A stretch of 64,000 nucleotides of DNA from an uncultured Bacteroidales bacterium (GCA_963787195.1 CAWBCI010000026.1:129605-193604), one strand, 5' to 3'; shown: positions 7,421 to 45,845, counted from the stretch's first letter. Notes: a model not told the origin generated them from the sequence alone. Made by a program: numbers and translations.

Positions 7421-7438
7421 TAAGCTTTTCCTTACGAG

Positions 7439-7467
7439 GGCAGGCCGGAATATCCGGCCTGCCTTTT
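7439..7467 (+). terminator. intrinsic terminator-like hairpin after the PPIase gene
   Basis: GGCAGGCCGG-AATAT-CCGGCCTGCC is a perfect 10-bp GC stem followed by TTTT. Confidence 0.75.
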
Positions 7468-7484
7468 AAATCAGCAGCTTAGCC

Positions 7485-8507: not shown

Positions 8508-8509
8508 GC

Positions 8510-8965
8510 CTATTTCCCCAGCATGTGCAGTTCGATCTCTTCAAAGATTACGTCTGCATTTTTCAATTTGTCGGGATTAATTACAAAGGCGGTCAGGACC
8601 TGTTCCACTGATTTTATCTGCTGAATGAGATGCTTTAATTTTGCTTCCTCCAGAATATCGTCAACAACAAGAAAAAAATCTATGGCTCTCTGGGATGGCA
8701 CAAGGCGGCCTTCAGGATGCTGGTTCTGTATCAGAAAATAATTTCTTCTTTCATCATTATCCTTAAAAAGATAAAAAGAATATGCCCTGTCGTTTTGTTC
8801 ATCCGGAATAATCAGATCATCTATCCTTTTAAAAGAAAAATTCATCTTGCGGTTAATCCCGAAAGCCAGGCGGTAATTCTTCAACTGGCATGATATTCCG
8901 ATCAGTGTGAATTCTGAAGATGAGGAAGATGACTGAATTTTGAATTTCTTTACCACAAAAAACAA
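8510..8965 (-). CDS. IPExxxVDY-family-like hypothetical protein
   Basis: The ~150-aa Bacteroidota pattern is present: LIGISCQLKNYRLAFGINRKM near the N-terminus and LVPSQRAIDFFL at the position of the IPExxxVDY signature. Confidence 0.55.
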   Translation of the reverse strand: MFFVVKKFKIQSSSSSSEFTLIGISCQLKNYRLAFGINRKMNFSFKRIDDLIIPDEQNDRAYSFYLFKDNDERRNYFLIQNQHPEGRLVPSQRAIDFFLVVDDILEEAKLKHLIQQIKSVEQVLTAFVINPDKLKNADVIFEEIELHMLGK

Positions 8966-8980
8966 AGATTATTTAAACGA

Positions 8981-10612
8981 TCATTTTTTAAGTACCTGCC
9001 AGTCGCCATAGTTTTCCCAGTTCACGTAGGTTTTAGGCTCGGTAGTCCAGAACTGATTGGAATTATAGGTCCATTCCATGGTTTTGGAACCGCCGCCACT
9101 CTGGGTGGTGACCAGCAGTCCTCCACTCACATAACCAATGGCAAAAGCCTGGTCACGGCCCCAATCCTTGTCGCCACGGCTCGGGTCGACCGGCACCCAG
9201 CCATAATTCGGAAGGTAAACTTCGACCCAACGGTGAAAGACATCATCCATGCTGGCTTCCTCACCCCTGACTACGACTGCACCAACGTAACGGGCCGGCA
9301 AGCCGGCGGCCCTGCACATCGAAATGAAGACGAAAGTATATTCGGAGCAGGAACCGTTTCCACGTGCCAGTACAGTCGGAGCTGTATTCCAGCCTCCGCT
9401 CATCTCATAATACATATGATCATTGATATAATCAAAGATCTTCCGGACTATCCAGTAAGGGTTCTTTTCCTTTCCAACAGCGGTATCAAGGGCATTTTGT
9501 ATGATAGGGTCATTCATCTGGAATTTTTCATTGTCTTCCAGATATTTTCCTTTCACATCGGCTGGAATATCTTCTAAGCTTCCCACTTTTTCAGGGTAAA
9601 TAAAATATCTGATATCCCAGGTTTTTACTTCAGTGGTCATTTCAACTGATTTACTCTCCCCGGCTTTGATATTATCAAAATGATAATGGGCCGTTTCCTG
9701 CCCCCAGCGATCGCTGACAAAATCACTGGGTTTTGTATTATACTTTATTTTATTCAGAATTTCCTGGTTCACCCTGTTTACCGGAACGGCCAGGTACATA
9801 TCGGCTGTCAGAATTTTACCTGGACCGAAATTCCTGACCTCTTGTTTATAAACCAGTTCACGCGTGGTCTCATTCTCACGTATATATTTCTCGTCATCCC
9901 TGACCTTCAGTTTATATAGTTTATGTTCCTGGTAATCGACCGCCCAGAGATATTGTCCGTCGTAACAAAGCCCCGAAATATAAGGCCCGGGGGCATTTGT
10001 AAGGATAATTACCTTTCCTGTAAGCGGATCCACCATATAGATTTCATTGAGACTATGGTCGCTCAGCCACAAGTACTTTCCGTCGAAAGCCAGGCCTGAA
10101 CAATTCTGTGAAGGCGCTTTAAATGAATGCAGCGTAGTTCCATCTTTCGGACTGAACTGTATAAGTTCATCTGAAAGATTATCGACACTCCAGAGGTAAT
10201 TTCCGTCCCAGGCCAGTCCGACAGGGCTTTTGGAGGGGGCCGCGAGGGTTTGCAGGATATCTCCGTTTTCCGGATCCAGGCGGTAAATAATACCATCATA
10301 ATCTTCAGAAACATCCTTACCGCCCTTCAGATCGGAATTCCAGAGGTATTTTCCGTCCCAGGCTATTCCGAGAGGCCAGTAGGCAGGCGATTCAAGGGTC
10401 CTGACTACTTTTCCGTCGACGGGATTTATACAGAATAATTTATCGGCTTGCCTGTCGGCCATCCAGATATATTTCCCGTCAAAGCCAAGTCCTGTCGGAT
10501 ACTCAGACGGGGTATCGTAGGAAGTAATCACTTCTCCGGTATAACTAAATGCAAAAAGAGGGAAAATTACGATTGTAATAATGGCTGGAATAATCTTTTT
10601 AAAGCTGTACAT
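8981..10612 (-). CDS. secreted beta-propeller / transglutaminase-like fusion protein
   Basis: Five N-terminal repeats of the type G(L/I)A(F/W)DGKYLW(x)SD. The C-terminal transglutaminase core has Cys (GNGSCSEYTFVF) and His/Asp (FHRWVEVYLPNYGWVPVDPS). Confidence 0.8.
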   Translation of the reverse strand: MYSFKKIIPAIITIVIFPLFAFSYTGEVITSYDTPSEYPTGLGFDGKYIWMADRQADKLFCINPVDGKVVRTLESPAYWPLGIAWDGKYLWNSDLKGGKDVSEDYDGIIYRLDPENGDILQTLAAPSKSPVGLAWDGNYLWSVDNLSDELIQFSPKDGTTLHSFKAPSQNCSGLAFDGKYLWLSDHSLNEIYMVDPLTGKVIILTNAPGPYISGLCYDGQYLWAVDYQEHKLYKLKVRDDEKYIRENETTRELVYKQEVRNFGPGKILTADMYLAVPVNRVNQEILNKIKYNTKPSDFVSDRWGQETAHYHFDNIKAGESKSVEMTTEVKTWDIRYFIYPEKVGSLEDIPADVKGKYLEDNEKFQMNDPIIQNALDTAVGKEKNPYWIVRKIFDYINDHMYYEMSGGWNTAPTVLARGNGSCSEYTFVFISMCRAAGLPARYVGAVVVRGEEASMDDVFHRWVEVYLPNYGWVPVDPSRGDKDWGRDQAFAIGYVSGGLLVTTQSGGGSKTMEWTYNSNQFWTTEPKTYVNWENYGDWQVLKK

Positions 10613-10703: not shown

Positions 10704-11438
10704 TCAATCCTCGTCGGGCCCCAATATTTTTTCGCAAGCTCTTTGGGCAGCCACTTGTTCAGCGCCTTTGATAGAAAAATCCTGACCGCGCGAAACCGCG
10801 TCTCCTTCTATAAATAATTCCACGAGGTACTGTTTTTTGTATCCTTCACCTATTTCATCGATCACCTTGAATTCGAGATTCATTTTTTCCCTTTGAATAT
10901 ATTCCAGGATACGGCTTTTAAAGTTAGATTCCGTTTTTTCAATTTCTTCAATATCCAGGTGAAGATCAATGATCCGCCGGAGGATCACTTTGCGGGTAAA
11001 TTTATAGCCGCGGTCGATATACACAGCTCCTATAAGTGCTTCAAAAGTATCTCCATAGATGGATTTGCTGGCAGTACGATTATAATCACTACCATTAAAG
11101 ATAAGTTTATCGATTCCCATTTTCACTGCAAGACGGTTCAGCCTGGATCGGCTTACCAGGCGGGAACGCATCTCAGTGAGGAAGCCTTCATTTTGTAAAG
11201 GATATTTACGGTAGAGGAAATCAGCCACCACGGAACTGAGCACTGCATCGCCAAGGTATTCAAGGCGTTCATTATTTAAATTTTGACCGTTAAAAGTCTT
11301 TTGGGGAGAGGCTTTGTGACAGAGCGCAAGTTCAAAAAGCCGTAGATTGCGAGGGCGGAAACCGAAGAGGTTCTTGATAGATTTGGAAAGTCTTTTTTCT
11401 CCGTAGTTACGGAGTTTGAAAGTAGCGATTATACTCAA
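10704..11438 (-). CDS. rnc: ribonuclease III
   Basis: RNase III signature NERLEYLGDAVL, plus FEALIGAVYID and a C-terminal dsRBD. Confidence 0.9.
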   Translation of the reverse strand: MSIIATFKLRNYGEKRLSKSIKNLFGFRPRNLRLFELALCHKASPQKTFNGQNLNNERLEYLGDAVLSSVVADFLYRKYPLQNEGFLTEMRSRLVSRSRLNRLAVKMGIDKLIFNGSDYNRTASKSIYGDTFEALIGAVYIDRGYKFTRKVILRRIIDLHLDIEEIEKTESNFKSRILEYIQREKMNLEFKVIDEIGEGYKKQYLVELFIEGDAVSRGQDFSIKGAEQVAAQRACEKILGPDED

Positions 11439-11452
11439 ACTCTAAGGTTAAA

Positions 11453-12706
11453 TTACTTCCTGAATTTTTTAAAGATGACGGAAGCATTGTGACCGCCAAA
11501 ACCAAAAGTATTACTCAGAGCGGCATTCACAACCCTGTTCTTTGCTTTATGAAAAGTAAAATCGAGTTGATTATCAATCTCGGGATCGTCTGTAAAATGA
11601 TTGATAGTCGGCGGAATAATGTCGTTCTGCACTGCCAAAATGGTAGCTATTGCTTCAATTGCGCCGGCGGCACCCAACAGGTGTCCGGTCATCGATTTTG
11701 TTGAATTAATACTGATCTTATAGGCATATTCCCCAAATGTTCCAATGATAGCTTTAGGTTCGGCAATATCACCAAGAGGGGTTGACGTTCCATGGGTATT
11801 AATATGGTCAATATCTTCAGGTTTGAATCCGGCATCTTTCAAAGCATTGTTCATAGAGATGATTGCTCCTTTACCTTCCGGATGAGGTGAGGTCATATGA
11901 TATGCATCACCAGACATGCCGCCACCCGCTACTTCGGCATATATCTTAGCGCCCCGGGCTAAAGCATGATCCAGATCTTCAAATATCAATCCGGCACCAC
12001 CTTCTCCGAGGACAAAACCATCCCTGTCTTTATCAAAAGGACGGGAGGCTGTTTTAGGATCGTCATTACGGGTTGAGATGGCGTGCATGGAATTAAATCC
12101 GCCGACACCTCCCGGGGTGATAGCTGATTCGGATCCACCTGTAATAAATACATCGGCCATTCCCAGCCTGATATAGTTATAGGAATCGATCATAGCATTG
12201 GCGGAGGATGCACAGGCCGATACGGTCGCAAAATTGGGACCCATGAAACCAAATTTGATGGAAATATGCCCGGCGGCAATGTCAGCGATCATTTTGGGGA
12301 TGAAAAAGGGATTGAAACGCGGGGTTCCGTCACCCTGTCCAAAATAAAGCACCTCATCCTCGAAAGTTTTGAGCCCTCCGATACCGGAGGCCCAGATGAC
12401 ACCAGCCCTGCCCATATCAAGCTTCTCCAGATCCAGGCCGGAATCCAGCACAGCCTGTTCACTGGCAATCAGTGCAAACTGTGCGTAACCATCGTACTTT
12501 CTGACTTCTTTCCTTTCAAAATATAACAAGGGGTCATAATTCTTGACCTCACAGGCAAAACGCGTTTTGAATTTGGATGCATCAAAACGTGTAATACCAT
12601 CAGCACCACTAACCCCATTGATCAATCCTTCCCACGTTTCACTGGTGGACTTGCCCAATGGGGTTATGGCGCCTAAACCTGTTACAACTACTCGCCGTAA
12701 TTGCAT
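11453..12706 (-). CDS. fabF: beta-ketoacyl-ACP synthase II
   Basis: Active-site context VSACASS, HGTSTP and GHLLGAAG. Full-length KAS II pattern, directly downstream of acpP. Confidence 0.95.
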   Translation of the reverse strand: MQLRRVVVTGLGAITPLGKSTSETWEGLINGVSGADGITRFDASKFKTRFACEVKNYDPLLYFERKEVRKYDGYAQFALIASEQAVLDSGLDLEKLDMGRAGVIWASGIGGLKTFEDEVLYFGQGDGTPRFNPFFIPKMIADIAAGHISIKFGFMGPNFATVSACASSANAMIDSYNYIRLGMADVFITGGSESAITPGGVGGFNSMHAISTRNDDPKTASRPFDKDRDGFVLGEGGAGLIFEDLDHALARGAKIYAEVAGGGMSGDAYHMTSPHPEGKGAIISMNNALKDAGFKPEDIDHINTHGTSTPLGDIAEPKAIIGTFGEYAYKISINSTKSMTGHLLGAAGAIEAIATILAVQNDIIPPTINHFTDDPEIDNQLDFTFHKAKNRVVNAALSNTFGFGGHNASVIFKKFRK

Positions 12707-14362: not shown

Positions 14363-15721
14363 TCAGATACCGATTTTACTGATCTTCTTCTGTATCTCTT
14401 CAGTTTGTTTTTCAAATCCGGGTTTTCCGAGCAGGGCAAACATATTGCTTTTATATTCCTCCACACCCGGCTGGTTGAAAGGATTTACCCCCAGCAGGTA
14501 GCCACTCAGGCCGCAAGACATTTCAAAGAAATAAATCAGCTGCCCAAGGGTGTCTTCATTGATAAGCGGAACGCTGACCCTGATATTCGGCACTCCCCCA
14601 TCAACATGGGCGAGCATAGTGCCCAGTTCAGCCATGCGGTTAACATAATGTATATGTTTGCCGGCGAGATAGTTCAGGCCGTCATCATCATTGGAAGCAT
14701 TCGGGACGACCACATTGGCATTTGATTTCTCAACTGAGATGACAGTTTCAAAAATATTCCTGAGGCCTTGCTGTATATATTGCCCCATGGAATGCAGATC
14801 GGTAGTAAAACTCACCCCTGCCGGGAAAAGACCCTTTCCCTCCTTACCTTCGCTTTCCCCGTAAAGTTGTTTCCACCATTCATTAAAATATAATAGGTTT
14901 GGCAGAAAGTTTACCAGAATTTCCACTGTCTTGCCTGAACGATAAAGTGCATTTCTTGCTGCGGCATAAGCCGCGACCGGATTTTCTCCTATCTTTTTTG
15001 AAGACTTAACAAATTCTTCCATCTTAGCGGCACCTTTTAAAAGTGCTTTGATATCGAAACCGGCGACAGCAATGGGCAGCAGTCCAACCGGTGTCAGAAC
15101 TGAATAGCGACCTCCCACATCATCAGGAACAACATAAGTCGGGTAAGCTTCTTCATCCGCTAGTTTTTTAAGGGCCCCTTTATGAGCATCAGTTATGGCG
15201 ATGATCCGTTTTCTTGCTTCTTCCCTGCCATATTTATTCTCCAGATGTTTGCGAAGTATGCGGAATGCAAGGGCCGGCTCGGTAGTTGTCCCTGACTTGG
15301 AGATCACAGTAAGTGCATAATCCCTGACATCAAGTATTTCCAGGAGATCAGCCATATACTCTTCACTCAACTGGTTTCCGGCATATACAATAAATGGATC
15401 TTTACCTTTATCATGAAGCTCGCTGAAATGGTGGCTCAGGGCTTCGATCACTGCCCGGGCGCCCAGGTAAGAACCCCCGATTCCTATTACGATATATATC
15501 TCTGCCTTCAGCCGGATCTGGGCGGCATGTTTCTCAATACTGTCAATTATAGCAGGGTCGAATTGTGAGGGAAGATTAATCCAGCCTAAAAAATCATTTC
15601 CTTTACCTGTTCCCGAATACAATGCCGGAAGCAAGGAATCTATCTCTTCCTGCATTTTCAGAAGGTCCTTTTCCGGTACAAATCCGTATACCTGGCTTAA
15701 GTCTATCTTTAAATCTGTCAT
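14363..15721 (-). CDS. pgi: glucose-6-phosphate isomerase
   Basis: Short (~450 aa) PGI form with IGIGGSYLGARA, SKSGTTTEP, GGRYSVLT and QLYGESEGK motifs. Confidence 0.9.
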   Translation of the reverse strand: MTDLKIDLSQVYGFVPEKDLLKMQEEIDSLLPALYSGTGKGNDFLGWINLPSQFDPAIIDSIEKHAAQIRLKAEIYIVIGIGGSYLGARAVIEALSHHFSELHDKGKDPFIVYAGNQLSEEYMADLLEILDVRDYALTVISKSGTTTEPALAFRILRKHLENKYGREEARKRIIAITDAHKGALKKLADEEAYPTYVVPDDVGGRYSVLTPVGLLPIAVAGFDIKALLKGAAKMEEFVKSSKKIGENPVAAYAAARNALYRSGKTVEILVNFLPNLLYFNEWWKQLYGESEGKEGKGLFPAGVSFTTDLHSMGQYIQQGLRNIFETVISVEKSNANVVVPNASNDDDGLNYLAGKHIHYVNRMAELGTMLAHVDGGVPNIRVSVPLINEDTLGQLIYFFEMSCGLSGYLLGVNPFNQPGVEEYKSNMFALLGKPGFEKQTEEIQKKISKIGI

Positions 15722-15783
15722 GTCAATTATTTTTAGGAGTTATATTTACTAAGTTAATAAATTGCATTGGAAAATAAATTTAC

Positions 15784-15819
15784 AAAAAAAGTGCGGTCCG
15801 CTTGCCCGCGGACCACACT
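15784..15819 (-). terminator. intrinsic terminator on the minus strand, upstream of pgi
   Basis: The reverse strand reads GTGTGGTCCGCG-GGCAA-GCGGACCGCAC followed by TTTTTTT. Confidence 0.6.
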
Positions 15820-15965
15820 CCCAATAAACCAAAAACCAAAATTATGAATCAGACGTTGTTGCGCAGTGTATAATCTACCTTGATTCGTATGGTCAGATTG
15901 TACACCACAAAGATACGGCGCAAAAATTGCCATGCTTGTTAAAGAAATTTAATGAACGTTAAAAG

Positions 15966-17438
15966 ATGTTAAATGCCCTTGTAAAATCCTATCTTAGAGT
16001 ATTTTTGCAGAAAATGAAACAACGCGGCATCATTTATATTGTAGGCATTCTGTCCATAGCCCTGCTTGGCTTTTCGGTAATTCAGGGTTATTGGGTCCAA
16101 AATGCCTATCTTGCCAAACAGGAAAATTTCACAAGGATAGTCAATGAAGCTGCCCAGAAAGTGATTGTCACACTGGAAAAAATGGAGATGGTAAAACGCT
16201 TCCAGCAGTCAAACACGCTGGCCGACTCAACTACATACCTGAATACCCTGGATTCCATTAACCGGGTCATGCTGAAGGAAATGCAATCGATCAATACCCG
16301 GAAAGATCTGGAGATCTTTTTTAATAAATATTTCATGACCCGTGACCTGATAGAGGATGTGATGATAGAACAAGGTGTAAAGCCTATTGAGAAACGTCTA
16401 AATCAACATTTACTGGATTCACTTCTGAGAAGGGAATTTGAATCCCGGAATATGAATACTCCTTACGAATATGGAATTTTCAGTTCCAGCAGGGACCTCC
16501 TGGTAATGAAAAGCCCCGATGCCAATGAGCAAGCCCTTATAAATCCCCGAACAAGTTTTCATTTCGAAATTTTTCCCGATGATATGTATCCGCGTCCTGA
16601 TTACCTCTATCTAAATTTCCCCTATGAACGCAAGTTTCTCCTCAACCAGATGTGGCCCTTACTGAGCATATCCATCATTCTTATCCTGATTATCATAATA
16701 TCTTTTACCTATACTCTCATCCAGCTTTTCAGGCAAAGACGTTTGTCGGAGCTGAAGACCGATTTCATCAATAATATGACCCATGAATTTAAAACGCCGG
16801 TCTCAACCATATCTTTGGCATGTGAAGCATTGAGTGACAAGGACATTCAAAAATCGGAGGAACTTTACAGGAATTATATCGGCATTATCCGGGAGGAAAA
16901 CCACCGCCTGGGGCAGATGGCCGAGCGTATCCTTCAATCGGCGAAATCAGAAAAAGGCGAAGTAGCCCTGAATAAGGAAACAGTCGATATTCATGATATT
17001 ATTACTGAGGTCATCAAAAATATCCGGATCCAGGTGGAAATAAAAGACGGCCAGATCATCAAGGATTTCCAGGCCAAAAACAGCATACTGGTGGTCGACC
17101 GTATGCACATGACAAACGTGATACACAACTTGTTGGATAATGCCAACAAATACACCCCCATAAAACCTCAGCTGATAGTTTCAACGCGGGATGTAAAAAA
17201 TGGGGTAATTATTTCAGTAGAAGATAATGGCATAGGTATTAGTAAGGTGGACCAGAAAAAGATTTTTGAAAAGCTTTACCGTGTACCGGAAGGAAATGTG
17301 CATAATTTTAAAGGCTTTGGCCTTGGGTTATCATATGTGAAAACCATTGTTGAAAGACATGGCGGATTTATAAAACTTGAGAGTGAATTGAAAAAAGGCA
17401 CTAAATTTGAGGTGTTTATTCCGACAAACCATCGTTGA
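15966..17438 (+). CDS. sensor histidine kinase (two TM segments)
   Basis: H-box FINNMTHEFKTPVSTI, N-box NLLDNANKYTP, G-boxes DNGIGI and GFGLGLSYV. Confidence 0.85.
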   Translation: MLNALVKSYLRVFLQKMKQRGIIYIVGILSIALLGFSVIQGYWVQNAYLAKQENFTRIVNEAAQKVIVTLEKMEMVKRFQQSNTLADSTTYLNTLDSINRVMLKEMQSINTRKDLEIFFNKYFMTRDLIEDVMIEQGVKPIEKRLNQHLLDSLLRREFESRNMNTPYEYGIFSSSRDLLVMKSPDANEQALINPRTSFHFEIFPDDMYPRPDYLYLNFPYERKFLLNQMWPLLSISIILILIIIISFTYTLIQLFRQRRLSELKTDFINNMTHEFKTPVSTISLACEALSDKDIQKSEELYRNYIGIIREENHRLGQMAERILQSAKSEKGEVALNKETVDIHDIITEVIKNIRIQVEIKDGQIIKDFQAKNSILVVDRMHMTNVIHNLLDNANKYTPIKPQLIVSTRDVKNGVIISVEDNGIGISKVDQKKIFEKLYRVPEGNVHNFKGFGLGLSYVKTIVERHGGFIKLESELKKGTKFEVFIPTNHR

Positions 17439-25583: not shown

Positions 25584-26303
25584 ATGCCTTTACTCTTGCA
25601 TCTGGAAACTGCAACACAGGTGTGTTCAGTTGTTCTGTCGTTAGATGGAAAAGCGATCTCCTCAAGGGAAAGCAATGAAAAAAATATACATTCTTCCGTC
25701 ATCACGGTTTTTATCGGCCAGGTATTGGAAGAGTGCGGGTTTAAACCCGCTGATCTTGACGGGATCTGCATCAGCCAGGGGCCAGGATCATATACCGGTT
25801 TGAGAATCGGGGTGTCAACAGCTAAAGGTCTTTGTTATGCCCTTGATAAACCACTCATTGCAATTAATACCCTGCGATCTATGGCAGAAGGCAAAATCCA
25901 TGAAATGGATGAAAAACATTATACATCAGACAGAAGCATACTCTTATGCCCTATGATCGATGCCCGCAGGATGGAAGTGTATAATGCCCTTTTCGAGCGG
26001 AAAGGAAAAATACTGAGGGAGACTCAGGCGGAAATTATTGAAAATAATTCCTTTTCGGATTTACTCTCAGAAAATGAAATCTGGTTTTTCGGAAATGGGG
26101 CGGAAAAATGTATCCCCTTGTTAGAGATGCAGCCAAATGCCCGTTTCGATACAGAGATCCAGCCTTCTGCTGCAAATATGATATCACTTGCAGAAAAGAA
26201 ATATGCGGCAAAGGAATTTGAAGATGTAGCTTATTTCGAACCCTTTTACCTGAAAGATTTCATGGCCGGAATTCCGAAAGTTAAAGGGCTGTTTGATTTC
26301 TGA
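25584..26303 (+). CDS. tsaB: tRNA t6A37 biosynthesis protein TsaB
   Basis: LLHLETATQVCSV...GPGSYTGLRIGVSTAKGL is the TsaB/YeaZ signature. Confidence 0.85.
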   Translation: MPLLLHLETATQVCSVVLSLDGKAISSRESNEKNIHSSVITVFIGQVLEECGFKPADLDGICISQGPGSYTGLRIGVSTAKGLCYALDKPLIAINTLRSMAEGKIHEMDEKHYTSDRSILLCPMIDARRMEVYNALFERKGKILRETQAEIIENNSFSDLLSENEIWFFGNGAEKCIPLLEMQPNARFDTEIQPSAANMISLAEKKYAAKEFEDVAYFEPFYLKDFMAGIPKVKGLFDF

Positions 26304-26336
26304 TTTCAGATTTCAGATTTCAGATTTCAGATTTTT
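26295..26336. repeat. tandem heptamer array (GATTTCA/TCAGATT, about 5-6 units)
   Basis: GATTTCTGATTTCAGATTTCAGATTTCAGATTTCAGATTTT overlaps the tsaB stop codon. Confidence 0.8.
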
Positions 26337-29683: not shown

Positions 29684-29772
29684 AACTTGAATTCGTTCGG
29701 ATAAGGCTTTACTTGTAATTTCATAATCCTGATTTTAATTTACTTTTCCTGTAAACTTATTTTAGGACGAGA

Positions 29773-29833
29773 CACCTTATCACCTTATCACCTTATCACC
29801 TTTCCACTTTATCACCTTATCACTCTTCCACAC
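29773..29833. repeat. tandem octamer array (CACCTTAT and variants)
   Basis: The sequence is CACCTTATCACCTTATCACCTTATCACCTTTCCACTTTATCACCTTATCACTCTTCCACAC. Confidence 0.8.
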
Positions 29834-29938
29834 GAACTATTTTCCTCCATTCCATTGCAATACAGTCCCCTAAAGTGTTGATAAAAAGAAAAGAAAGCAA
29901 GACCGATAAATCTTAATTTTGAAGAAATAAATATAAAT

Positions 29939-33854: not shown

Positions 33855-33900
33855 ATTTCAGAATTCAGATTTCAGACGTCTGAAATCTGAATTCTGAAAT
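33855..33900. terminator. perfect 46-nt palindrome between convergent genes (bidirectional terminator-like)
   Basis: ATTTCAGAATTCAGATTTCAGAC|GTCTGAAATCTGAATTCTGAAAT has 23-nt arms with no mismatches and is built from the TCAGATT word. Confidence 0.8.
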
Positions 33901-37779: not shown

Positions 37780-37864
37780 TTATTTCCTTTCTTCAAAATA
37801 AAAAGAAAGCTTATCAAGAATTGAACCAGAGGGCATGTTGTCATTGAGGAAGGAACAATTGACA

Positions 37865-37910
37865 GGTGGAACAGTGGAAAGGTGGAAAAGTGATAAGGTG
37901 ATATGGTGGA
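37865..37910. repeat. inverted copy of the CACCTTAT-type word array
   Basis: GGTGGAACAGTGGAAAGGTGGAAAAGTGATAAGGTGATATGGTGGA is the reverse-complement type of the array at 29773-29833. Confidence 0.7.
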
Positions 37911-37954
37911 ATTGTATCTAAGGAGGGACTCCCGTATTTCCGTAAGTTCCGGAG

Positions 37955-38112
37955 GGAGGACGCAAAATCCAGTTCAAAGTTCAAAATTCAAAGTGAAGAG
38001 TTTAAGTTGATTAGTTATTAAGTTTTGTCTGGTGCTTGGTAGGAATAGAAACACAATATCAGCTGAACACACGTACTTCGTCCTTAAAGGACGGCACAAC
38101 AATAGCCCCGGC
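37955..38112 (+). repeat. dispersed ~155-nt repeat, copy R1
   Basis: CCAGTTCAAAGTTCAAAATTCAAAGTGA.GAGTTTAAGTTGATTAGTTATT.AGTTTTGTCTGG.GCTTGGTAGGAATAGAAACACAATATCAGCTGAAC.CACGTACTTCG is shared with R2 with only a few mismatches. REP-like GC hairpins follow. Confidence 0.8.
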
Positions 38113-38241
38113 CTTAGGGCCGGGGGCTTGAATGAACCAGTCCGTACCCCATCCCGAAGGGACAACACGACATAGGCCCGGGCCTTAAAAGTTGGTTCTC
38201 CTGATATTTTTATTCAGGAAAATTTAAAGAAACAATAAGCT

Positions 38242-38547
38242 CTATAAGAAAGCTGCTGCCCCTCCTAAAACAGCACCAAAAACAGTAATTAGTAAAATAA
38301 TCCCTATTAATGAAATCACTAATCCTGCAATGGCTAATCCTTTTGGCTGTTTAAATACACCAACAAAAGATAATATTAGCCCTAACAACCATAGGACCCA
38401 ACCTAAAAAAGGGACCCAACCTAAAAATATTGCGATTAGAGCCAGAACAAAACCAGCAGTTCCAACACCATTCGATCGCTTATCAGTCTGATTAATAATC
38501 ACTGTCTGTCCAGATTGACTTTGTGGGTTTAGAGTATCATTCATCAT
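38242..38547 (-). CDS. small membrane protein (DUF4190-like)
   Basis: 101 aa with a polar N-terminus, then three hydrophobic helices rich in G/L/I/W (GFVLALIAIFLGWVPFLGWVLWLLGLILSFVGVF...). Confidence 0.6.
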   Translation of the reverse strand: MMNDTLNPQSQSGQTVIINQTDKRSNGVGTAGFVLALIAIFLGWVPFLGWVLWLLGLILSFVGVFKQPKGLAIAGLVISLIGIILLITVFGAVLGGAAAFL

Positions 38548-38945
38548 TTTTACTTTATTTAGTATTTCCTACTCGTATGGCTTTTCGGAATACGCCCCGT
38601 TTATTGATGTGGTCGCTGGACTCCACTTCCTTTTAATTTCATGTCGGCTGTCTCAAACTTTCCTAAAAGGATTGAGTATATGTACAGGCTACAATTATTT
38701 TGCTTATATCTATGTTAAGAATTAGTAATGATTTTTTGGAAGAAGACTTGACAGCACTTATAGTTTCAGCCTTAGTAAATGTTTTTGGCTTGGTTTTTTC
38801 ACAAGCTAAATTTCAAAATTATTTTTTGAAATTCCAAATTTAATTAGATAAAAGTTGAATTATATTTTGCTGATGGCAGATTTAAGAGTTCCGTCCTAAG
38901 AAAATGGCACAACAATAGACCCCCTTGAATTTTATAGCCCTTAAA

Positions 38946-39105
38946 GGAGCGACACAAATCCCAGTTCAAAGTTCAAAATTCAAAGTGATGAGTTTAAGTT
39001 GATTAGTTATTTAGTTTTGTCTGGAGCTTGGTAGGAATAGAAACACAATATCAGCTGAACGCACGTACTTCGACCTGAAAGGAGGTCACCGCAATAGCCC
39101 GGGTA
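38946..39105 (+). repeat. dispersed ~155-nt repeat, copy R2
   Basis: Direct copy of R1 about 990 nt downstream. It continues into further REP-like hairpins (GTCCTGAAAGGAC, CCGGCAAAGGCCGG). Confidence 0.8.
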
Positions 39106-39172
39106 TTTATGCCTGGGGAAAAGGACGCCCTTAAAATCGCAAGTCCTGAAAGGACGACACTGGGCCGGCAAA

Positions 39173-39218
39173 GGCCGGGATCTGGTAGCGGAATGCAGAC
39201 AGGGAATGAATTCAGATT
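39173..39218 (+). repeat. 46-nt direct repeat, left copy (island boundary)
   Basis: GGCCGGGATCTGGTAGCGGAATGCAGACAGGGAATGAATTCAGATT is identical to 44336-44381 except for one base. Confidence 0.85.
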
Positions 39219-39231
39219 ATTTAAAGATATT

Positions 39232-39894
39232 TCATCCCTGATTTATTATACTTTGAAGTTTCATCCTGTCAATACCACCTCCTTGTTGAGAAATATCTCC
39301 TATCTCGCTTTGTTCTTTAATAAATCCGTTTTCTATCAAAACATCAGAAATTAAATCCTGAAAAGCATTTTTCACTCTTGAGTATCTAAAGAAGACCTTT
39401 ATAATAGGAGATCTTTTTTGCGCTACTATACTTAATTTTTTCTCGAAGAAGCTTGGTATTGTCAAACTGACTAAGCGCCTATACTCATTTCTAGTCATAT
39501 TCCGATAATTTATCGAAGTATCTACACTATTTAAAGGGTATGGCGAAATGTCGATTATCAAAAATCCAATTTCATTACAAATTTTTAAAAATTCTTTTTT
39601 GTTTGATATTGAAATGTTTAAAGCTTCTTCCAAATCACTCCTGTGAAAAAATTGACTGTTTTTTGTCTCGGGATTATAAATATATTTTTTCATTTTACCC
39701 CAAAGCGGAGCTTCGGCAATCATCAAATACCTGACCTTTTCTATATTTTCCAAATTTTCGAACCATATCTTGTTTATTTCATTATAAGAGCTTTCCAAAT
39801 AAGCATCTTCCTTTACGAATTCGTCTGATAATCCTAGTCTTTTATAAAATGATTCAATTATAGGTTTGTTGGGTTCGTAATCTATATTTTTCAT
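39232..39894 (-). CDS. hypothetical protein (island gene 6)
   Basis: 220-aa ORF ending 14 nt from the left direct repeat. VRYLMIAEAPLWG and FLIIDISPYPLN weakly recall UDG-superfamily motifs A and B. No secure family. Confidence 0.6.
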   Translation of the reverse strand: MKNIDYEPNKPIIESFYKRLGLSDEFVKEDAYLESSYNEINKIWFENLENIEKVRYLMIAEAPLWGKMKKYIYNPETKNSQFFHRSDLEEALNISISNKKEFLKICNEIGFLIIDISPYPLNSVDTSINYRNMTRNEYRRLVSLTIPSFFEKKLSIVAQKRSPIIKVFFRYSRVKNAFQDLISDVLIENGFIKEQSEIGDISQQGGGIDRMKLQSIINQG

Positions 39895-40012
39895 GAATTC
39901 AATTATTAATCAAATATAAATATCATCGTGAAATTCTATGCAAAATGACTTTGAAAAAGGAATTAACTTATATAATGATATTTTCGGTTTTGAGCGTTAA
40001 TATTATATCTCC

Positions 40013-40234
40013 CTATTCCCCTTCCCCAAGAAAATAAATAGAATGAAGGGGTAATTTATTCTTCTTTTCATCCGACAGATTATTGTAGTATTCCTGCCAC
40101 AATTCAATAAAGCGTTCAATATCTATAAGTTCGATGTGTTTTGAGAAGCTGCGGGCTTCCTGGATTGCTGTTTGTTTGGCTCTCGCCATCATGAGTAATA
40201 CAATTTGTAAAACCGTCTTGGTATTTTCACTCAA
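40013..40234 (-). pseudogene. probable C-terminal remnant of an Mrr-like restriction endonuclease
   Basis: ...AIQEARSFSKHIELIDIERFIELWQEYYNNLSDEKKNKLPLHSIYFL resembles the extreme C-terminus of Mrr_cat-type restriction proteins. There is no catalytic region, and only a TTG start that overlaps the upstream stop. Confidence 0.4.
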
Positions 40235-41042
40235 ATAACCTTGTCTGCCTTTCGATTTTAGGATGAAAAGTCCCGATGATCATAAAGGGATTCCGTGAAA
40301 CGTAATGATTCAATTTAGTTGTTCCTAAAAAGAAATGCAGGTCTTTAGTTTTGGAGAAATCATCAAAATATTTTTTTCTTACGTCTTCAATAGCCTTTTT
40401 TTCGTTCCCTTCATGTCTTGCAAGGCAATTCCAGTAAAGTTGTCCGGTCTCCCAGTCTTCTATCATCATATGGCTTTCTGTGCCTTGATTGTCTTTGAAC
40501 ACGAATTTGAACTTATACGGTAATTTCTGGACAACTATAAATCTTCCTTCGGACGTCGTTTCAAAAATATTAAGCTGGTTTAACTTTTCCAGTCTGGCTG
40601 TGTCCCAGTTCCGTTCCACACTTTCGGCTGTGAAATCCATAATTTCAGTCGGCTTGAAAACGGCTAATGAAGTACAAATATTTTTATCTTTTGCTTCTGC
40701 AATAAGTTCGGAAAGATTGTAATAAATCTTCCCGAGACAAATTTTCTTTCGCTCATGCCAGTTCCCGGCGGAAACAATATGGCCTGTTACTTTAATTTCT
40801 TCGTCAATGGTTTTAGGCCGAAAACTTTCCGGTCTGAAATCATTGTTATTTTTTACCAGATCCACTTCTATCCAGTCATATTTCTTGTACTGCTCGTTAT
40901 ATGATTTTTGCCGAAACCGAACCGGATAAATTCTTATCCATGTGCCATCTTCCCTAAAACCAGCTGTGCATACAAGTTCATCATACTTGGAGGAAAGTGT
41001 CGGATAGGTTTTTACAGTGATCAGTACTTTTGTCAATGCCAT
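40227..41042 (-). CDS. hypothetical protein, 271 aa (island gene 4, partner of the DUF488 fusion)
   Basis: Clean ORF. Its ATG lies 2 nt after the upstream stop (TGA-TA-ATG). Beta-rich N-terminus (ITVKTYPTLSSKYDELVCTAGF..WIRIYPVRF) and a C-terminal IEDWETGQLYW...FMIIGTFHPK block. Family not recognised. Confidence 0.7.
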   Translation of the reverse strand: MALTKVLITVKTYPTLSSKYDELVCTAGFREDGTWIRIYPVRFRQKSYNEQYKKYDWIEVDLVKNNNDFRPESFRPKTIDEEIKVTGHIVSAGNWHERKKICLGKIYYNLSELIAEAKDKNICTSLAVFKPTEIMDFTAESVERNWDTARLEKLNQLNIFETTSEGRFIVVQKLPYKFKFVFKDNQGTESHMMIEDWETGQLYWNCLARHEGNEKKAIEDVRKKYFDDFSKTKDLHFFLGTTKLNHYVSRNPFMIIGTFHPKIERQTRLFE

Positions 41043-41044
41043 TA

Positions 41045-41929
41045 TCAGATATGTTTTACTTCATAGTTAAATCCGGCTAATGTCGAAATGGATTCAGCCA
41101 AATGTTTTCTGTGGCATTTATTAATATCGGCTTCAAAACAGGTAAGAGCAATGCGTTGATTTTTCTTTAATATGTTAAATATTTCTTCCTGCTCGTCTAT
41201 AGTCTCTTTCAGGTTATCCATCTTATACCAGGAAAAGAGTTTGTCATAATCCGCCTGGGTATTCAGTTCCTGTCTTTGCCCTGATTGTATGCCTAGCTCC
41301 GGAATATGTACGTATTGTATGCCAAGACTTTCACAGTATCGTTTTAACAGGCTCTTGCTAAAGCCAAATTTCATGCTCAGCGGGTTATTGCGAACGTCGA
41401 CCAACACTTTTACGTCATTCTGAAGTAACCTGACCAAATATTCCTCGAGCGATATGCCTTCATAACCTATGGTGAACAGTACCGTTTTACTACTATCAGG
41501 TTTTGCCGCATTAATCCTCTCAAGCTGTATTATATTCAGAATATTTTCGGCCGCTTCACTTTTTATGGCATAGAAGGGAAAGTTTATATAGGTATGCTTC
41601 ATCAGGGCATTGGCATTCATATGGCCATAGGCGGCTTTCACTTCCTCTGATATCTTCCTGTCTTCCGGTTTAAGCTGTTTCAGGTAATCCGTTTTATCGG
41701 CTTTTTTAAAGTGAGATTTGGTTTCCTGTAAGATCCCTTTTGAGGCCATAGTCGTCATATCTGCATTAGCCGAAAAAGAATAAGAGCCGAATTTGTAAGG
41801 TATAAAATCATAAACGGCCTTCGTCTGCCTCTTCGAAAATAAGAAAAGCAACTTCTGAATCCGGATTTTATCCAATTCGTCTTCAAAAAGCTGTAATAAG
41901 GCCAAGATGACTTTTCTCCTGTAAAACAT
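41045..41929 (-). CDS. fusion protein: wHTH/Panacea-like N-domain plus C-terminal DUF488
   Basis: The C-terminal half (LFTIGYEGISLEEY...LVDVRNNPLSMKFGFSK...LGIQYVHIPELG...ALTCFEADINKCHRKHLA) matches the long DUF488 pattern. The N-terminal IQKLLFLFSKRQTKAVYDFIPYKFGSYSF weakly resembles DUF4065/SocA-type domains. Confidence 0.75.
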   Translation of the reverse strand: MFYRRKVILALLQLFEDELDKIRIQKLLFLFSKRQTKAVYDFIPYKFGSYSFSANADMTTMASKGILQETKSHFKKADKTDYLKQLKPEDRKISEEVKAAYGHMNANALMKHTYINFPFYAIKSEAAENILNIIQLERINAAKPDSSKTVLFTIGYEGISLEEYLVRLLQNDVKVLVDVRNNPLSMKFGFSKSLLKRYCESLGIQYVHIPELGIQSGQRQELNTQADYDKLFSWYKMDNLKETIDEQEEIFNILKKNQRIALTCFEADINKCHRKHLAESISTLAGFNYEVKHI

Positions 41930-42121
41930 TTTGCAAAGTTACGCTCTATAATGAGATTTCTAAAGCTAAATCCTTTTTGAATGCTGAAATAGTCTAAACT
42001 ATAATTTTGAAGGAATGACTAATAAATATTACTACTGATATTCCATGCTGGTTCCGTCAACACGATTTTTAAATTCTGTATTGCGCAGGTGGTCAGGATG
42101 TCTTGTTATTGTGTGTAGTGA

Positions 42122-42688
42122 TTATCCCACTAATATTCTTTTTTTTCTATAGTTATTTAGGTGCTTTTTTAGGTGTTCTTCGATTTGAAACAATCTCATT
42201 ATTGGTGTTGAAAAATATGCTGTTTGTTTTAATGCAATAGACCGCAATTTTTTCACCGCCGATTCAAACTTTTCGTTTATAATTAATTCCAGATTAACAT
42301 CGAATTCCTTATCAATGGAATCCTTTAATCTTAAAAGCTCTGTTCGTGTGTTATATTTTGCATTGGGTCCACTAACTTTAACGATAGGAGACCAAATCAT
42401 AGGAATTATAGACTTGTATTCGCTAAAGTACTTTCTTGCATAATTTATATCCTTTTTAAACTTCGCGTAAAATCGGTTATAGTCATCAGGCCTTTTGTTT
42501 TTAACATATTGAAGCCCTTGAATATGTGCTGCGACTTCACAGACATAAACCTTTTTATCTAGCAAGCTAATTCCTACTACATCTATTTCTCCTTGAATGT
42601 CAGGATTATTTACATTGTATTGTATGAAATCACATTTGAGAGCTAATTTCAAATATTCACCACATATCTCCTCACTTACAGTTTGCAT
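42122..42688 (-). CDS. hypothetical PD-(D/E)xK-like nuclease-fold protein
   Basis: GEIDVVGISLLDKKVYVCEVAAH resembles the D...(E/D)x(K) core of YraN/NucS-type restriction-fold proteins, although the Lys position is not obvious. Confidence 0.55.
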   Translation of the reverse strand: MQTVSEEICGEYLKLALKCDFIQYNVNNPDIQGEIDVVGISLLDKKVYVCEVAAHIQGLQYVKNKRPDDYNRFYAKFKKDINYARKYFSEYKSIIPMIWSPIVKVSGPNAKYNTRTELLRLKDSIDKEFDVNLELIINEKFESAVKKLRSIALKQTAYFSTPIMRLFQIEEHLKKHLNNYRKKRILVG

Positions 42689-42838
42689 ATAGTTTTTATT
42701 TTATTTTTTTATTCTGAATGTTATCCACAACTCCCCATTCTTTATACCACGTTATCGTTTTTCCTAATTAAACTTAATAATTCTCTATTTATTGATATTA
42801 CTATTATCTTCCGGAAATTAGTCATTATGCGTTGTGTT

Positions 42839-43672
42839 TCATTTAATCTTATTGAGGTATTTATAGTGAGCTTTAATATTATGAAAATAGTAGCTTCCTA
42901 TCGAATTAGAGTTAATTAATTCATCATACACTTTCTTTGGAACATCTACGTATTGGAAAACATCACCATGATGGAATTCTATTTCCATAATCTTATTTTC
43001 AGCATCATAACCTATAGAAGCAATATTGGAAGAACTAACAGGAATCCTTTTTATGTTTTGTGTATGGAATTCTGTCAGCATTTTTGCAACACCGGCTGAT
43101 ACATACATTTGGTACCTGCTGGTTGGTTTTTCGGGTAGGATAAGTTGCAGCCAGCCTAATTCTACTAAAGGTTTAATGTGTCTCGTGTAATTTTTATTAT
43201 TATTGTAAAGCGCTATAAATTCAAATATGTCCTCGCGAGATTTTGCTTCAGTACAAAATTTTAAAATCGAAAAAATAGTGTCTCCGATTTTACTTATCAA
43301 TTCATTTCTGTCTTTGGTCCATCCTTGGTCCTTTACTGACCTAAGATAAGAATCAATTTCTTCTAATGTTTTAATATCCGGTATTTTATCTTTGGCTCTA
43401 TCTTTGGCTCCGGTTAATTTCACAGCACCAGCAAGAGGATGGATTTTAATTGTGCAAAGAAAATAAGACCTGTCATCATCGGTTTCGAAAACCGGTGGCG
43501 GCGACCCGTTTTTCTCCAATTCGCTGTGTATTATATTGTAAAATCTTACTGATTCGGCGCTGCCGGGAACTATGGTTATATCCACCGGATTCCATCCCTT
43601 TTTCAACTCAATCCTATCCCATTCAACGGTATGGCCATTAATCAGTTCATTTATATTTATGGGTAGTTCCAA
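42839..43672 (-). CDS. mosaic protein: collapsed AlbA_2/HATPase_c_4-type regulator, wHTH and C-terminal KTSC domain
   Basis: The N-terminal [21 protein letters not shown] (AlbA_2 start) runs directly into [25 protein letters not shown] (end of HATPase_c_4). Then come [25 protein letters not shown] (wHTH tail) and [51 protein letters not shown] (KTSC). Confidence 0.65.
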
Positions 43673-44249
43673 ATTAATATTTCTATGGATTCTTGAAAAG
43701 CTATTTATGATTTCTCAAATAATCGATTTTGATTTCAGCAAGTTTTAAAACATCCCTGGTCTTTTTTCATTTGAATTAAATTGCTTGCCATTGCTTGTTA
43801 AAAGTACGCGGATAATTTTACCCCGTGGATTTTTTTTACAATAGTTGTCAACACAAAAGTCTAATTATCGGGAAGATTGCATTCTGTAAAATTTAGGGAA
43901 TACCACCATATTCTCCTGCTCAAATTCTCATTTATGTGTTCATTTTCCATTTTCAATATATATTATACTTCGTTTATATTTAATGCATAAATGCAATATT
44001 TGTATAATTTTAAAAGGTAGATTTTTTTTATCCCGGCAAACTTGATGAACGAAATTTCGGGATAATTTTATGAAAATCAAAATTTTATTTAATGAAGAAA
44101 ATGATTTCAGATAGCCGGATTCAGATTTCAGATTTACGTCTTCCAGGATGGAAGTATAATAATTCTGACTGTTTCGCTTTGCCGGCGTCACTGCAAAAAG
44201 CTATCAGATCTTGACTTTCGTCAGGATGACGCCACATCTTGCTTAATAG

Positions 44250-44302
44250 AAAAGCGGCGCGGCACGCCTTGAAGATTTCCAGAGGTGTGCCGCGCCGCTT
44301 TT
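44250..44302 (-). terminator. strong stem-loop terminator downstream of the RND operon (bidirectional form)
   Basis: AAAAGCGGCGCGGCACGCC-loop-GGTGTGCCGCGCCGCTTTT has a roughly 19-bp GC-rich stem flanked by an A-run and a T-run. Confidence 0.75.
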
Positions 44303-44335
44303 ATAAAAATACCATAAAGACGTCATCCCGGCGCA

Positions 44336-44381
44336 GGCCGGGATCTGGTAGCGGAATGCAGACAGGGAATGAAATCAGATT
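44336..44381 (+). repeat. 46-nt direct repeat, right copy (island boundary)
   Basis: GGCCGGGATCTGGTAGCGGAATGCAGACAGGGAATGAAATCAGATT. It is preceded by the REP-like hairpin ATCCCGGC-GCA-GGCCGGGAT. Confidence 0.85.
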
Positions 44382-44477: not shown

Positions 44478-45845
44478 TCAGAAACTGAACTTCAGACTGA
44501 ATACAAATTCATCCTTATCCTTCAGCATTGCAAAAGCGCTTTCCCCTTCTCCCCGGATCAACCTCAGGCCTAGTGAAATTGTGGTATTCAGGTTAGGCAT
44601 GTAATCGATCGAAGGCATATAAATCCAAGCGTAATTGCCCGGAATATCCTTCCAGTCTGAAACTACAAAAGCCATCGTTAGCGGTTTGATATTCAGTTTA
44701 TCTTCAAAAAATTTCTTCTCATAATTCAAAACAAAATAATCATTCAGGTTCTTTGATCCCATTTCATTCATAAAACCATGTAGATACTGGAAATTCAAAT
44801 AAGATCCATCGCTAAAACTGTAATCCCCGCCGATAACGAATTTGATATAAGGAGTATTATCCAGTAATAGCGTATCAGTGGGAGGAAGACCGAATGAAGA
44901 AAGATCATTGCTGGCAATTACTTTATTTTCCGGAATAAAAGCCGCAGCCTCGGCCCAAAGACCGATGCCCTTCACAGAAGTTGCCATATCGGCGCCAATG
45001 ATGTGCTGCCTCGGGTAAGACATATAGGAACGTATGTCTAAAGCACCTTCCATACCGACCGGTGCGATTACGTTATGATATGGCAGGGGCAACTGTGTCC
45101 GGCCATAGACATAACTCAGCGAAAAATCAATACTGCTGAGATATCCCCCGAATTTCAGGCCGTAAGTCGAATTCCCGCGTAAGTTCAGGGCAGGCATGGC
45201 CAGGCTGTCGGAAAAATTCGCAAGGTAAAATCCGGCGGGGACCGGGATAGAAGTTGTCAGGGCGGAAGACCAATCGCCTAAAGGCAAGGTGGCCGGCCTG
45301 AACAGGGCAATATAGTCGCCTTCTATGTAAAAATCCTTGATGTAATAAGTGGCATGTATACCGTCCGAGCCATTATGCCGGCCGAAATCCCAGATATCCT
45401 CCAGGTCATATGAATTCAGATTATCCGTTGGATTCAGCCGGTCGGCAGTGCCCCAGGCAATCCGCTGCCTTCCGATCTTGACATCCAGGTTCTTACTGAG
45501 AAAACCGTATAATTCCACATAGGCTTCACGTATATCAATATTATAAGGTGAAGTTAGATCCTTGTTGAACAATTGATCCGTATTCGTTATCAAAGGAAAA
45601 CCAAATGACCTCAGCCAGACTTCACTGTGGAATTTAGCCTTATCGGTAAATTTTTTCTCCAGTTGAAGGTCCAGGCGGTTTTCATTCCATGACCATTGCC
45701 CGTCATTCAGCCTGAAACGATTGTCGGTATAAATCTCTCCATAGAGTTTTATTGGATTTTCCTGTGCCTGCAAACGGGTAAAAGGAAGCAAGGAAATAAG
45801 GATCAAGCCGGCCAAAATTCTTCGTTTTAAACTTCTTCTTTTCAT
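44478..45845 (-). CDS. outer-membrane beta-barrel (porin-like) protein
   Basis: Signal peptide, beta-strand periodicity and a C-terminal ...FSLKFSF aromatic terminus. Last gene of the RND operon. Confidence 0.6.
   Translation of the reverse strand: MKRRSLKRRILAGLILISLLPFTRLQAQENPIKLYGEIYTDNRFRLNDGQWSWNENRLDLQLEKKFTDKAKFHSEVWLRSFGFPLITNTDQLFNKDLTSPYNIDIREAYVELYGFLSKNLDVKIGRQRIAWGTADRLNPTDNLNSYDLEDIWDFGRHNGSDGIHATYYIKDFYIEGDYIALFRPATLPLGDWSSALTTSIPVPAGFYLANFSDSLAMPALNLRGNSTYGLKFGGYLSSIDFSLSYVYGRTQLPLPYHNVIAPVGMEGALDIRSYMSYPRQHIIGADMATSVKGIGLWAEAAAFIPENKVIASNDLSSFGLPPTDTLLLDNTPYIKFVIGGDYSFSDGSYLNFQYLHGFMNEMGSKNLNDYFVLNYEKKFFEDKLNIKPLTMAFVVSDWKDIPGNYAWIYMPSIDYMPNLNTTISLGLRLIRGEGESAFAMLKDKDEFVFSLKFSF

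Follow-up and report, generated by a model that had tools for sequence, protein, structure and literature searches.

Cis-mobilisable elements (CIMEs) are integrase-less, low-GC accessory segments that lie among housekeeping genes, are bounded by direct repeats of about 50 nt and carry defence-type cargo and gene remnants; direct repeats of this length are typical of attachment (att) sites. Defence islands and hotspots likewise assemble intact systems, restriction stumps and orphan genes between conserved core genes. Among two-gene systems, DarTG is a tight operon found on mobile elements and in defence neighbourhoods, with an antitoxin that joins a DarG-C-terminal/Panacea-like domain to an enzymatic domain. 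The PDC systems catalogued by PADLOC are generally candidates, of which some have been validated (PMC12881386). The locus described here resembles each of these. It occupies 39165-44381 of a 64,000-nt stretch (hereafter the window, numbered from its first letter) of an uncultured Bacteroidales bacterium (GCA_963787195.1 CAWBCI010000026.1:129605-193604), and is probably a small, mosaic defence and accessory islet, acquired horizontally and undergoing gene turnover, which lies between direct repeats, has no recombinase and carries an intact operon of the PDC-M19 type. It shares with CIMEs the low-GC accessory segment, the repeats of about 50 nt, the housekeeping context, the lack of an internal recombinase and the defence-type cargo with remnants. 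It differs from them in that we know of no cognate integrase or related integrative and conjugative element or integrative mobilisable element, in that the target is neither a tRNA nor the 3' end of a gene, and in the host-like intergenic sequence at the right end of the present segment. As in a defence island, an intact candidate system, a restriction stump and orphan genes stand between conserved core genes, although at 5 kb the islet is very small. Its gene pair is structurally a member of PADLOC PDC-M19, itself a computational candidate.

Both base composition and a repeat mark out the islet. The GC content of 39219-44335 is 0.343 compared with 0.426 in the rest of the window; in a sliding-window analysis, a value this low was reached in 0.17% of 5.1-kb windows, with the minimum in the one that starts at 39201, at the left repeat copy. 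GC content is also lower in the five island genes that encode at least 90 aa than in the other 53 genes (Mann-Whitney p = 2e-4). A first-pass annotation had reported a 46-nt direct repeat in the same orientation on either side of DNA more AT-rich than its flanks, and both statements hold. The 46-mer occurs exactly twice in the window, both times on the plus strand and with one mismatch between copies, and had no match in 100 dinucleotide-preserving shuffles of the window. Repeat finding and gapped local alignment extend it to 54 nt (94% identical), with a perfectly identical centre of 38 nt and two sharp ends. The repeat copies and the PDC-M19 operon between them are as follows.

39165-39218, plus strand: left direct-repeat copy (46-nt core 39173-39218), 14 nt downstream of the stop codon of the last island gene
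40227-41042, minus strand: PDC-M19B, 271 aa; PADLOC PDLC04508, E 3.6e-128, residues 1-270 against profile positions 1-269; phrog_25907
41045-41929, minus strand: PDC-M19A, 294 aa; PADLOC PDLC04505, E 2.2e-126, residues 1-294 against profile positions 1-294; Pfam DUF488, E 3.5e-23
41934-41941, minus strand: TAACTTTG, Bacteroidetes-type -7 box, 5 nt upstream of the M19A start codon, read from the sequence
44328-44381, plus strand: right direct-repeat copy (46-nt core 44336-44381), 97 nt downstream of the stop codon of the DUF1302-family gene (44478-45845)

The 54-mer opens with a small hairpin (CCGGC-AAA-GGCCGG) and closes with TCAGATT. This terminal CCGG stem of 5-8 bp is its only hairpin; its fold z-scores lie between -0.3 and -2.8 according to copy and strand, and the left copy folds no better than shuffles. 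Sensitive blastn found no further partial copies in the 64 kb searched of the 199.7-kb source contig, which contain about 45 intergenic regions, and a 23-nt core of the repeat had no match in 185,579 GTDB species genomes, JGI metagenomes or IMG/VR. By these searches the repeat does not appear to be a widespread dispersed family. No Rfam family coincides with it; the one family that Rfam does find, a DUF805 RNA motif at 38562-38631, lies outside the segment, and nearby sub-threshold Rfam matches are limited to Acido-Lenti-1 and ncr1175. Since the 54-mer is built from host intergenic vocabulary (the CCGG hairpin and the TCAGATT end), it is most likely native intergenic sequence. That its copies were duplicated by insertion (att-type or Campbell-type) rather than by local repeat shuffling is, as one part of the overall interpretation, close to an even call. 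Insertion-linked duplication is favoured because there are two copies with sharp ends, they lie at the edges of the lowest-GC stretch, they are absent from public collections and their size is about 50 nt; M19AB segments elsewhere also lie between direct repeats more often than control positions do.

PADLOC, run on the island proteins, gave the full-length PDC-M19A and PDC-M19B matches listed above. The two genes are co-oriented with a 2-nt spacer and form an intact two-gene operon. The TAACTTTG box upstream is one that we take to be a Bacteroidetes promoter element, and most of about 60 homologous loci have a TA.(C/T)TTTG box in the corresponding position. The nearest other locus is homologous (74.7% nucleotide identity) over 41943-40233 alone, that is, over the two genes and 14 nt of promoter. 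In all 71 metagenome and genome loci with room for both genes, A lies directly upstream of B, and in these 71 no other island gene was found alongside. The pair (1.7 kb) is an autonomous, highly mobile module that travels as a unit.

The distribution of the pair is broad. The homologues of each protein number about 7,000 at 90% clustering (6590 for M19B), and the best 120 homologues of A and B, spread across Bacteroidota and Ignavibacteria, are 70-86% identical (76-86% for M19B). The pair is thus far more conserved than its chromosomal neighbour, the DUF1302 protein, which has no homologue above 65%. More distant pairs occur on plasmids of cyanobacteria, Rhizobium, Streptomyces and Burkholderia, and on conjugative plasmids of Sulfolobus, where they adjoin an integrase. 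Both proteins have PHROG families; in Gordonia phages an M19B homologue follows the immunity repressor, and the pair sits in the immunity/integrase region of prophages. Type IIG and type I restriction-modification, DRT2, SoFic, MADS and PDC-S19 are the most frequent families among 122 immediate neighbours of the pair in 23 non-redundant loci, and these defence-gene neighbourhoods fit the PADLOC status of PDC-M19 as a defence candidate. PDC-M19 is accordingly named here as a candidate anti-phage system, with a predicted anti-phage function. In the Gordonia phage Nymphadora, the M19B homologue (gp43) is co-oriented with, and directly after, the immunity repressor gene (gp44); the DUF488 gene (gp42) runs convergently, and its label "HipA toxin" seems to be an annotation error.

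Direct repeats also accompany the module elsewhere: in 8 of 32 other M19AB loci, direct repeats of at least 20 nt straddle it, compared with 4% of control positions. In one of these loci (L021) a 39-nt direct repeat (8045-8083 and 10818-10856) brackets M19AB and one further gene and also provides the last codons of the adjoining histidine kinase; at 6775-9048 of the same locus, four consecutive small genes upstream of M19A share a 3' end of 34-57 nt (..GAAATAAAAATTGTGGAGGG.AAAT). In many genomes (loci L036, L057, L062, L069, L070, L071, L086, L099 and L103) the first ~110 nt after M19B hold a conserved non-coding element of roughly 100 nt (…CACAAAGC..ACCTTGCAAAAGAGC…), which is missing from the window. 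This element sometimes also precedes M19A, giving flanking direct repeats, and group II introns lie just downstream in L057 and L103.

M19A is made up of an N-terminal winged-helix domain and a C-terminal DUF488 domain. Its AlphaFold2 model (predicted local distance difference test, pLDDT, 72) comprises an N-terminal winged-helix domain and a C-terminal alpha/beta domain. Residues 4-96 give weak matches to the DarG C-terminal domain (E ~2e-4 in PADLOC and NCBIfam, far below the curated cut-offs) and to Panacea (E 0.02), and C264, E266, C272, H273 and R274 are invariant in the alignment. M19A has no sequence match in the PDB, and the literature searched gives no function for DUF488. Burroughs and Aravind reportedly placed DUF488, in 2023, in the rhodanese-phosphatase superfamily, with which the weak fold matches described below agree. 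The AlphaFold2 model of M19B (pLDDT 67, predicted template modelling score 0.70) is of moderate quality; its N-terminal part is rich in beta structure and its C-terminal part is alpha/beta. Its best Foldseek matches are non-significant oligonucleotide/oligosaccharide-binding (OB) fold proteins, and among the libraries its PADLOC matches are limited to PDC-M19B models, with nothing in Pfam.

Much as in the DarTG antitoxin, M19A joins a domain with a weak DarG-C-terminal/Panacea resemblance to an enzymatic domain, and M19 is also a tight two-gene operon carried on mobile elements and in defence neighbourhoods. There is no DarT ADP-ribosyltransferase in M19, and M19A lacks a macrodomain: its enzymatic domain is DUF488, with a fold weakly resembling that of protein tyrosine phosphatases (PTPs) or rhodaneses, and the order of the domains is reversed. 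Furthermore, many homologous pairs carry a short DUF488 protein without the M19A-type N-terminal domain. Because of this architecture and context, a toxin/antitoxin-like arrangement may be proposed in which M19B, presumed to be the effector, would be neutralised by M19A through binding and/or enzymatic reversal.

The remaining features between the repeats are given below. The island holds six substantial open reading frames (ORFs) and a doubtful one, all on the minus strand, in agreement with the six same-strand genes of the first-pass annotation.

39232-39894, minus strand: 220-aa orphan, GC 0.30; no Pfam, PADLOC, NCBIfam, PHROG or PDB match
40013-40234, minus strand: 73-aa Mrr/PDC-S02-type remnant overlapping the M19B stop codon; matches the last ~45-60 positions of three PDC-S02 hidden Markov models
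42122-42688, minus strand: 188-aa orphan, GC 0.32; no significant family or PDB match
42839-43672, minus strand: 277-aa chimeric/truncated gene with a short N-terminus; Pfam KTSC, E 8e-22 (C-terminal), and Fic-like_C, E 4e-5
43940-44191, minus strand: doubtful 83-aa ORF with a GTG start, GC 0.29, in the 660-nt non-coding right tail; no match in any library
44102-44142, plus strand: CAGATTT heptamer motif, also placed at 44122-44135; 7 matches against 0.04 expected, with others at 26300-26334 and 33859-33896
44247-44305, no strand assigned: bidirectional terminator-like hairpin, a GC-rich inverted repeat with 23-bp arms (91% complementary) and A and T runs at its sides

The 73-aa ORF aligns by tblastn to residues ~251-303 of a 304-aa Mrr protein, that is, to its last ~55 residues, and this alignment identifies 40013-40234 as the C-terminal stump of a restriction-type endonuclease gene. 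A 509-aa ATP-binding/"RNA-binding domain" protein aligns by tblastn, over its residues ~383-497, with residues 48-191 of the 277-aa protein. The shared part is the C-terminal quarter of the longer protein (winged helix, Fic-like_C), and the 277-aa gene is therefore a truncated, fused derivative. The suspicion that two of the six genes are remnants of larger ones was thus borne out. The same annotation read several products as nucleases or as DNA-associated, which fits the Mrr-type stump; a nuclease assignment for the 188-aa and 220-aa ORFs is backed by no significant family or structure match. The 188-aa protein possibly contains a PD-(D/E)xK-like motif (GEIDVVG...VCEVAAH); homologues occur as isolated hypothetical genes in the accessory regions of Variovorax and Rossellomorea and of haloarchaeal plasmids. 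The family of the 220-aa protein is small, with 248 representatives with conserved motifs (E-A-P..G, Y.YNP, D..P and RY); relatives are fused to HARE-HTH, S4, PIN or sigma70 region 1.1 domains. An hhalign comparison with E. coli Ung placed two motifs in register with a probability of 2.7%, a profile search against the PDB gave nothing, and a uracil-DNA glycosylase-like fold would be a guess. The 83-aa ORF at 43940-44191 is probably not a gene, and a scan for sigma-70 promoters and terminators gave counts no higher than in shuffles.

The position of M19AB against the Mrr/PDC-S02 stump and beside a truncated KTSC gene and two orphans implies successive insertions and deletions. The compositional edge at the repeat, the PDC-M19 pair and the two remnants together support the earlier suggestion of an old insertion, or of a defence or variable spot undergoing gene turnover.

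The islet lies in a terminator-proximal intergenic region with a resistance-nodulation-division (RND)-LolA-DUF1302 operon on one side and the DUF805/S1C-protease genes on the other. The left flank encodes a UbiE-type methyltransferase, CrcB, DUF190, an S1C protease with a PDZ domain and, after a DUF805 RNA motif, a small membrane ORF. The right flank encodes the DUF1302-family protein (44478-45845), a LolA-like protein and an MMPL/RND transporter, with DnaG primase beyond them. The flanking genes (DnaG, UbiE, CrcB, S1C protease, RND operon) are ordinary chromosomal housekeeping genes. Downstream of the RND-LolA-DUF1302 operon, and still between the repeats, stands the hairpin at 44247-44305. 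Identity to the DUF1302 protein reaches 62-65% in its best homologues overall and at most 53% among GTDB representatives. In relatives with 47-65% identity in this protein the RND-LolA-DUF1302 operon is kept, and the genes beyond it vary from locus to locus. One relative locus (L013, DUF1302 62% identical; also L014) has an M19A/M19B pair at 15382-17082, about 4 kb downstream of the operon, in the opposite orientation and behind different genes.

From this arrangement we infer a mode of integration. The islet, or a first version of it, would have integrated at a native intergenic sequence, which would thereby have been duplicated as the direct repeat of 46-54 nt. A tyrosine or serine recombinase encoded elsewhere could have acted on it, as for a CIME-like, integrase-less element; alternatively, circular DNA bearing the repeat sequence could have entered by single-crossover recombination. 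Later insertions and deletions would have built and eroded the islet, and recombination between the two repeat copies could now remove it precisely. A bolder proposal holds that the segment is still a mobile recombinase-less cassette, excised and re-integrated in trans via the 46-54-nt repeat, and that PDC-M19 is a new toxin-antitoxin-like abortive-infection module in which a DUF488 cysteine-phosphatase-fold enzyme, fused to a DarG-C/Panacea-like binding domain, would reverse or block M19B, a protein with a fold not yet seen in the PDB. This combination is improbable.

A number of observations count against a horizontally acquired islet with a defence cargo. No integrase or transposase family was found for any island ORF in Pfam, NCBIfam, PADLOC or PHROGs, and ARAGORN found no tRNA or tmRNA in the 64 kb; the first-pass annotation had also seen no integrase, transposase or tRNA. 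Recombinase families are equally absent from the 10 flanking ORFs, from ~8 kb to the left of the islet to ~12 kb to its right. The repeat corresponds to no known att target, there being no tRNA or Rfam family at this intergenic site. The relatives of the DUF1302 protein are only 62-65% identical and are non-syntenic downstream, so that no empty site is definable. M19A and M19B are only mildly low in GC content (0.38-0.39), near the low end of the host genes. The right ~450 nt between the repeats is host-like, with the terminator hairpin and the host CAGATTT heptamer motif, and the repeats therefore separate foreign from native DNA uncleanly. Directly to the left of the island stands another direct repeat, of 157 nt (90% identical, 37955-38111 and 38946-39103), and hairpin and heptamer modules make up a mosaic in the intergenic DNA of this region. 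With this second repeat-bracketed cassette and this mosaic, local shuffling could yield the 54-mer pair without any insertion. As for the cargo, the C-terminal fold of M19A gives recurrent weak PDB matches to the PTP-fold phosphatases SsoPTP, TpbA, PRL and KAP (probability at most 0.94, E 0.05-0.3). M19B has no PDB sequence match and no Foldseek PDB match better than E 0.09, and in the literature we found no paper naming the PDC-M19 pair nor an experiment backing anti-phage activity.

Could the 54-mers be unrelated to the arrival of the genes? They might instead represent a native, lineage-specific intergenic module, such as a repetitive extragenic palindromic (REP) or bacterial interspersed mosaic element, a miniature inverted-repeat transposable element (MITE)-like sequence or a 3' untranslated region/terminator, with the genes gathered piecemeal. 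The intergenic DNA of the window is full of double-hairpin units, heptamer arrays and GC hairpins; a CCGG hairpin of this sort opens the 54-mer, and the host heptamer TCAGATT closes it. The adjacent DUF805 gene is enclosed by a 157-nt repeat, each 54-mer copy lies just 3' of a minus-strand transcription unit, and local repeat families likewise straddle the M19AB pair elsewhere. Two copies alone also leave unexplained the ends of Logan contigs inside the right copy. Such an origin is nonetheless rather unlikely: across 64 kb and about 45 intergenic regions there are just two copies, both at the edges of the lowest-GC stretch, with no match in public collections. The sharp ends and identical 38-nt centre are as expected of a target or att duplication, and the left copy folds no better than shuffles. 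The Logan contigs concerned come from the same population (run ERR11523667), and searches with exact protein sequences led solely to short contigs of this kind. They are 100% identical to the window over the island and left flank and 99.8% identical over the right flank, and they confirm the island-to-repeat junctions. Contig L026 ends at 39181 in the left copy, as predicted for two copies at k = 31, whereas L011 and L012 end at 44345 and 44356 in the right copy, off that prediction; L012 further differs from the window at 10 of 4992 positions. The odd right-copy ends and the differences in L012 point to strain variants or to extra repeat copies in the sample.

That the short Logan contigs all stop inside repeat copies, none crossing a whole copy, is also what would be seen if the assembly had been mis-joined at the 46-nt repeat, with the island belonging elsewhere or to a separate circular molecule. 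A de Bruijn assembler, however, normally breaks off at repeats that exceed its k (here 31), and reads of more than 50 nt can phase the copies by the differences at their two ends (AA/GC and T/A). Every short contig bears the variant expected for the integrated arrangement, and an artefact is very improbable. A decayed prophage, satellite or integrative mobilisable element, of which att repeats and "moron" or defence cargo were left, is a little less remote and still decidedly improbable. In its favour, PHROGs includes families for M19A and M19B and a match to the KTSC-domain gene, the pair is found in the immunity/integrase region of Gordonia prophages, and the repeats have the length typical of att sites. 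Against such an origin, no phage structural, replication or integrase remnant was found in any ORF, with no systematic six-frame search of the non-coding parts, and at the 71 loci M19AB is not accompanied by the other island genes. An integron-like cassette array without an integrase (a cluster of attC sites lacking an integron integrase, CALIN), with the repeats as attC sites, would account for the genes on one strand, the repeats at the 3' ends of units and the missing integrase. The 54-mer has no GTT or AAC triplet on either strand, and thus lacks the R'/R'' core sites (RYYYAAC/GTTRRRY), and it forms no long imperfect hairpin. A single "cassette" would moreover hold six genes, one of them self-promoted, with no repeat between individual genes; this explanation is scarcely credible. 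The missing core triplets and long hairpin contradict an integron attC identity. An insertion sequence, composite transposon or MITE was also rejected, as no inverted repeat joins the island ends, there is no transposase, and the repeat, a direct one, greatly exceeds the usual length of target duplications.

The islet itself, as a probable insertion, would be a routine example of small defence cargo in a bacterial chromosome. Its interest lies in the operon more than in the repeat, as a clean, compact natural context for PDC-M19, which is very widespread (bacteria, archaeal plasmids, phages) and unusually conserved, with one partner that lacks a recognisable fold and another that is an uncharacterised DUF488 protein. 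Should the pair prove to be a defence or toxin-antitoxin module, it would give DUF488 its first biological role. If such integrase-less islets do move, reads should reveal circular junctions and empty sites with a single repeat copy.

The 157-nt repeat to the left of the island brackets a DUF805 RNA motif (38562-38631, Rfam RF03081, 74 bits) and a small membrane ORF (38242-38547), and its 27-nt core had 0 matches in viral contigs. Double-hairpin units (CGTCCTTAAAGGACGGCACAACAATAGCCCCGGCCTTAGGGCCGGGG) occur four times nearby, at 38079-38125, 38150-38180, 38892-38922 and 39071-39101, one of them with a sub-threshold Rfam match to Acido-Lenti-1 (27 bits, where the gathering score is 37). Heptamer and octamer tandem arrays occupy many intergenic regions of the window, among them 49303-49414 (ACCATTA, upstream of dnaG), the two CAGATTT arrays listed above (26300-26334 and 33859-33896), and an array of CACCTTAT and its inverse (29770-29857 and 37856-37919). 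In the relative with 62% identity (L013), a GGTCACT/GGTCATT heptamer array of about 160 nt, with nine overlapping 58-nt copies, directly follows the DUF1302 gene (11314-11490). Such arrays seem to be a feature of the lineage with lineage-specific units. A family of GC-rich hairpin repeats (CCCCTGGCCCCTTCCCCC...GGGGGAAGGGGAA) is present in three further intergenic regions of the window, at 4115-4245, 4728-4784 and 6503-6634.

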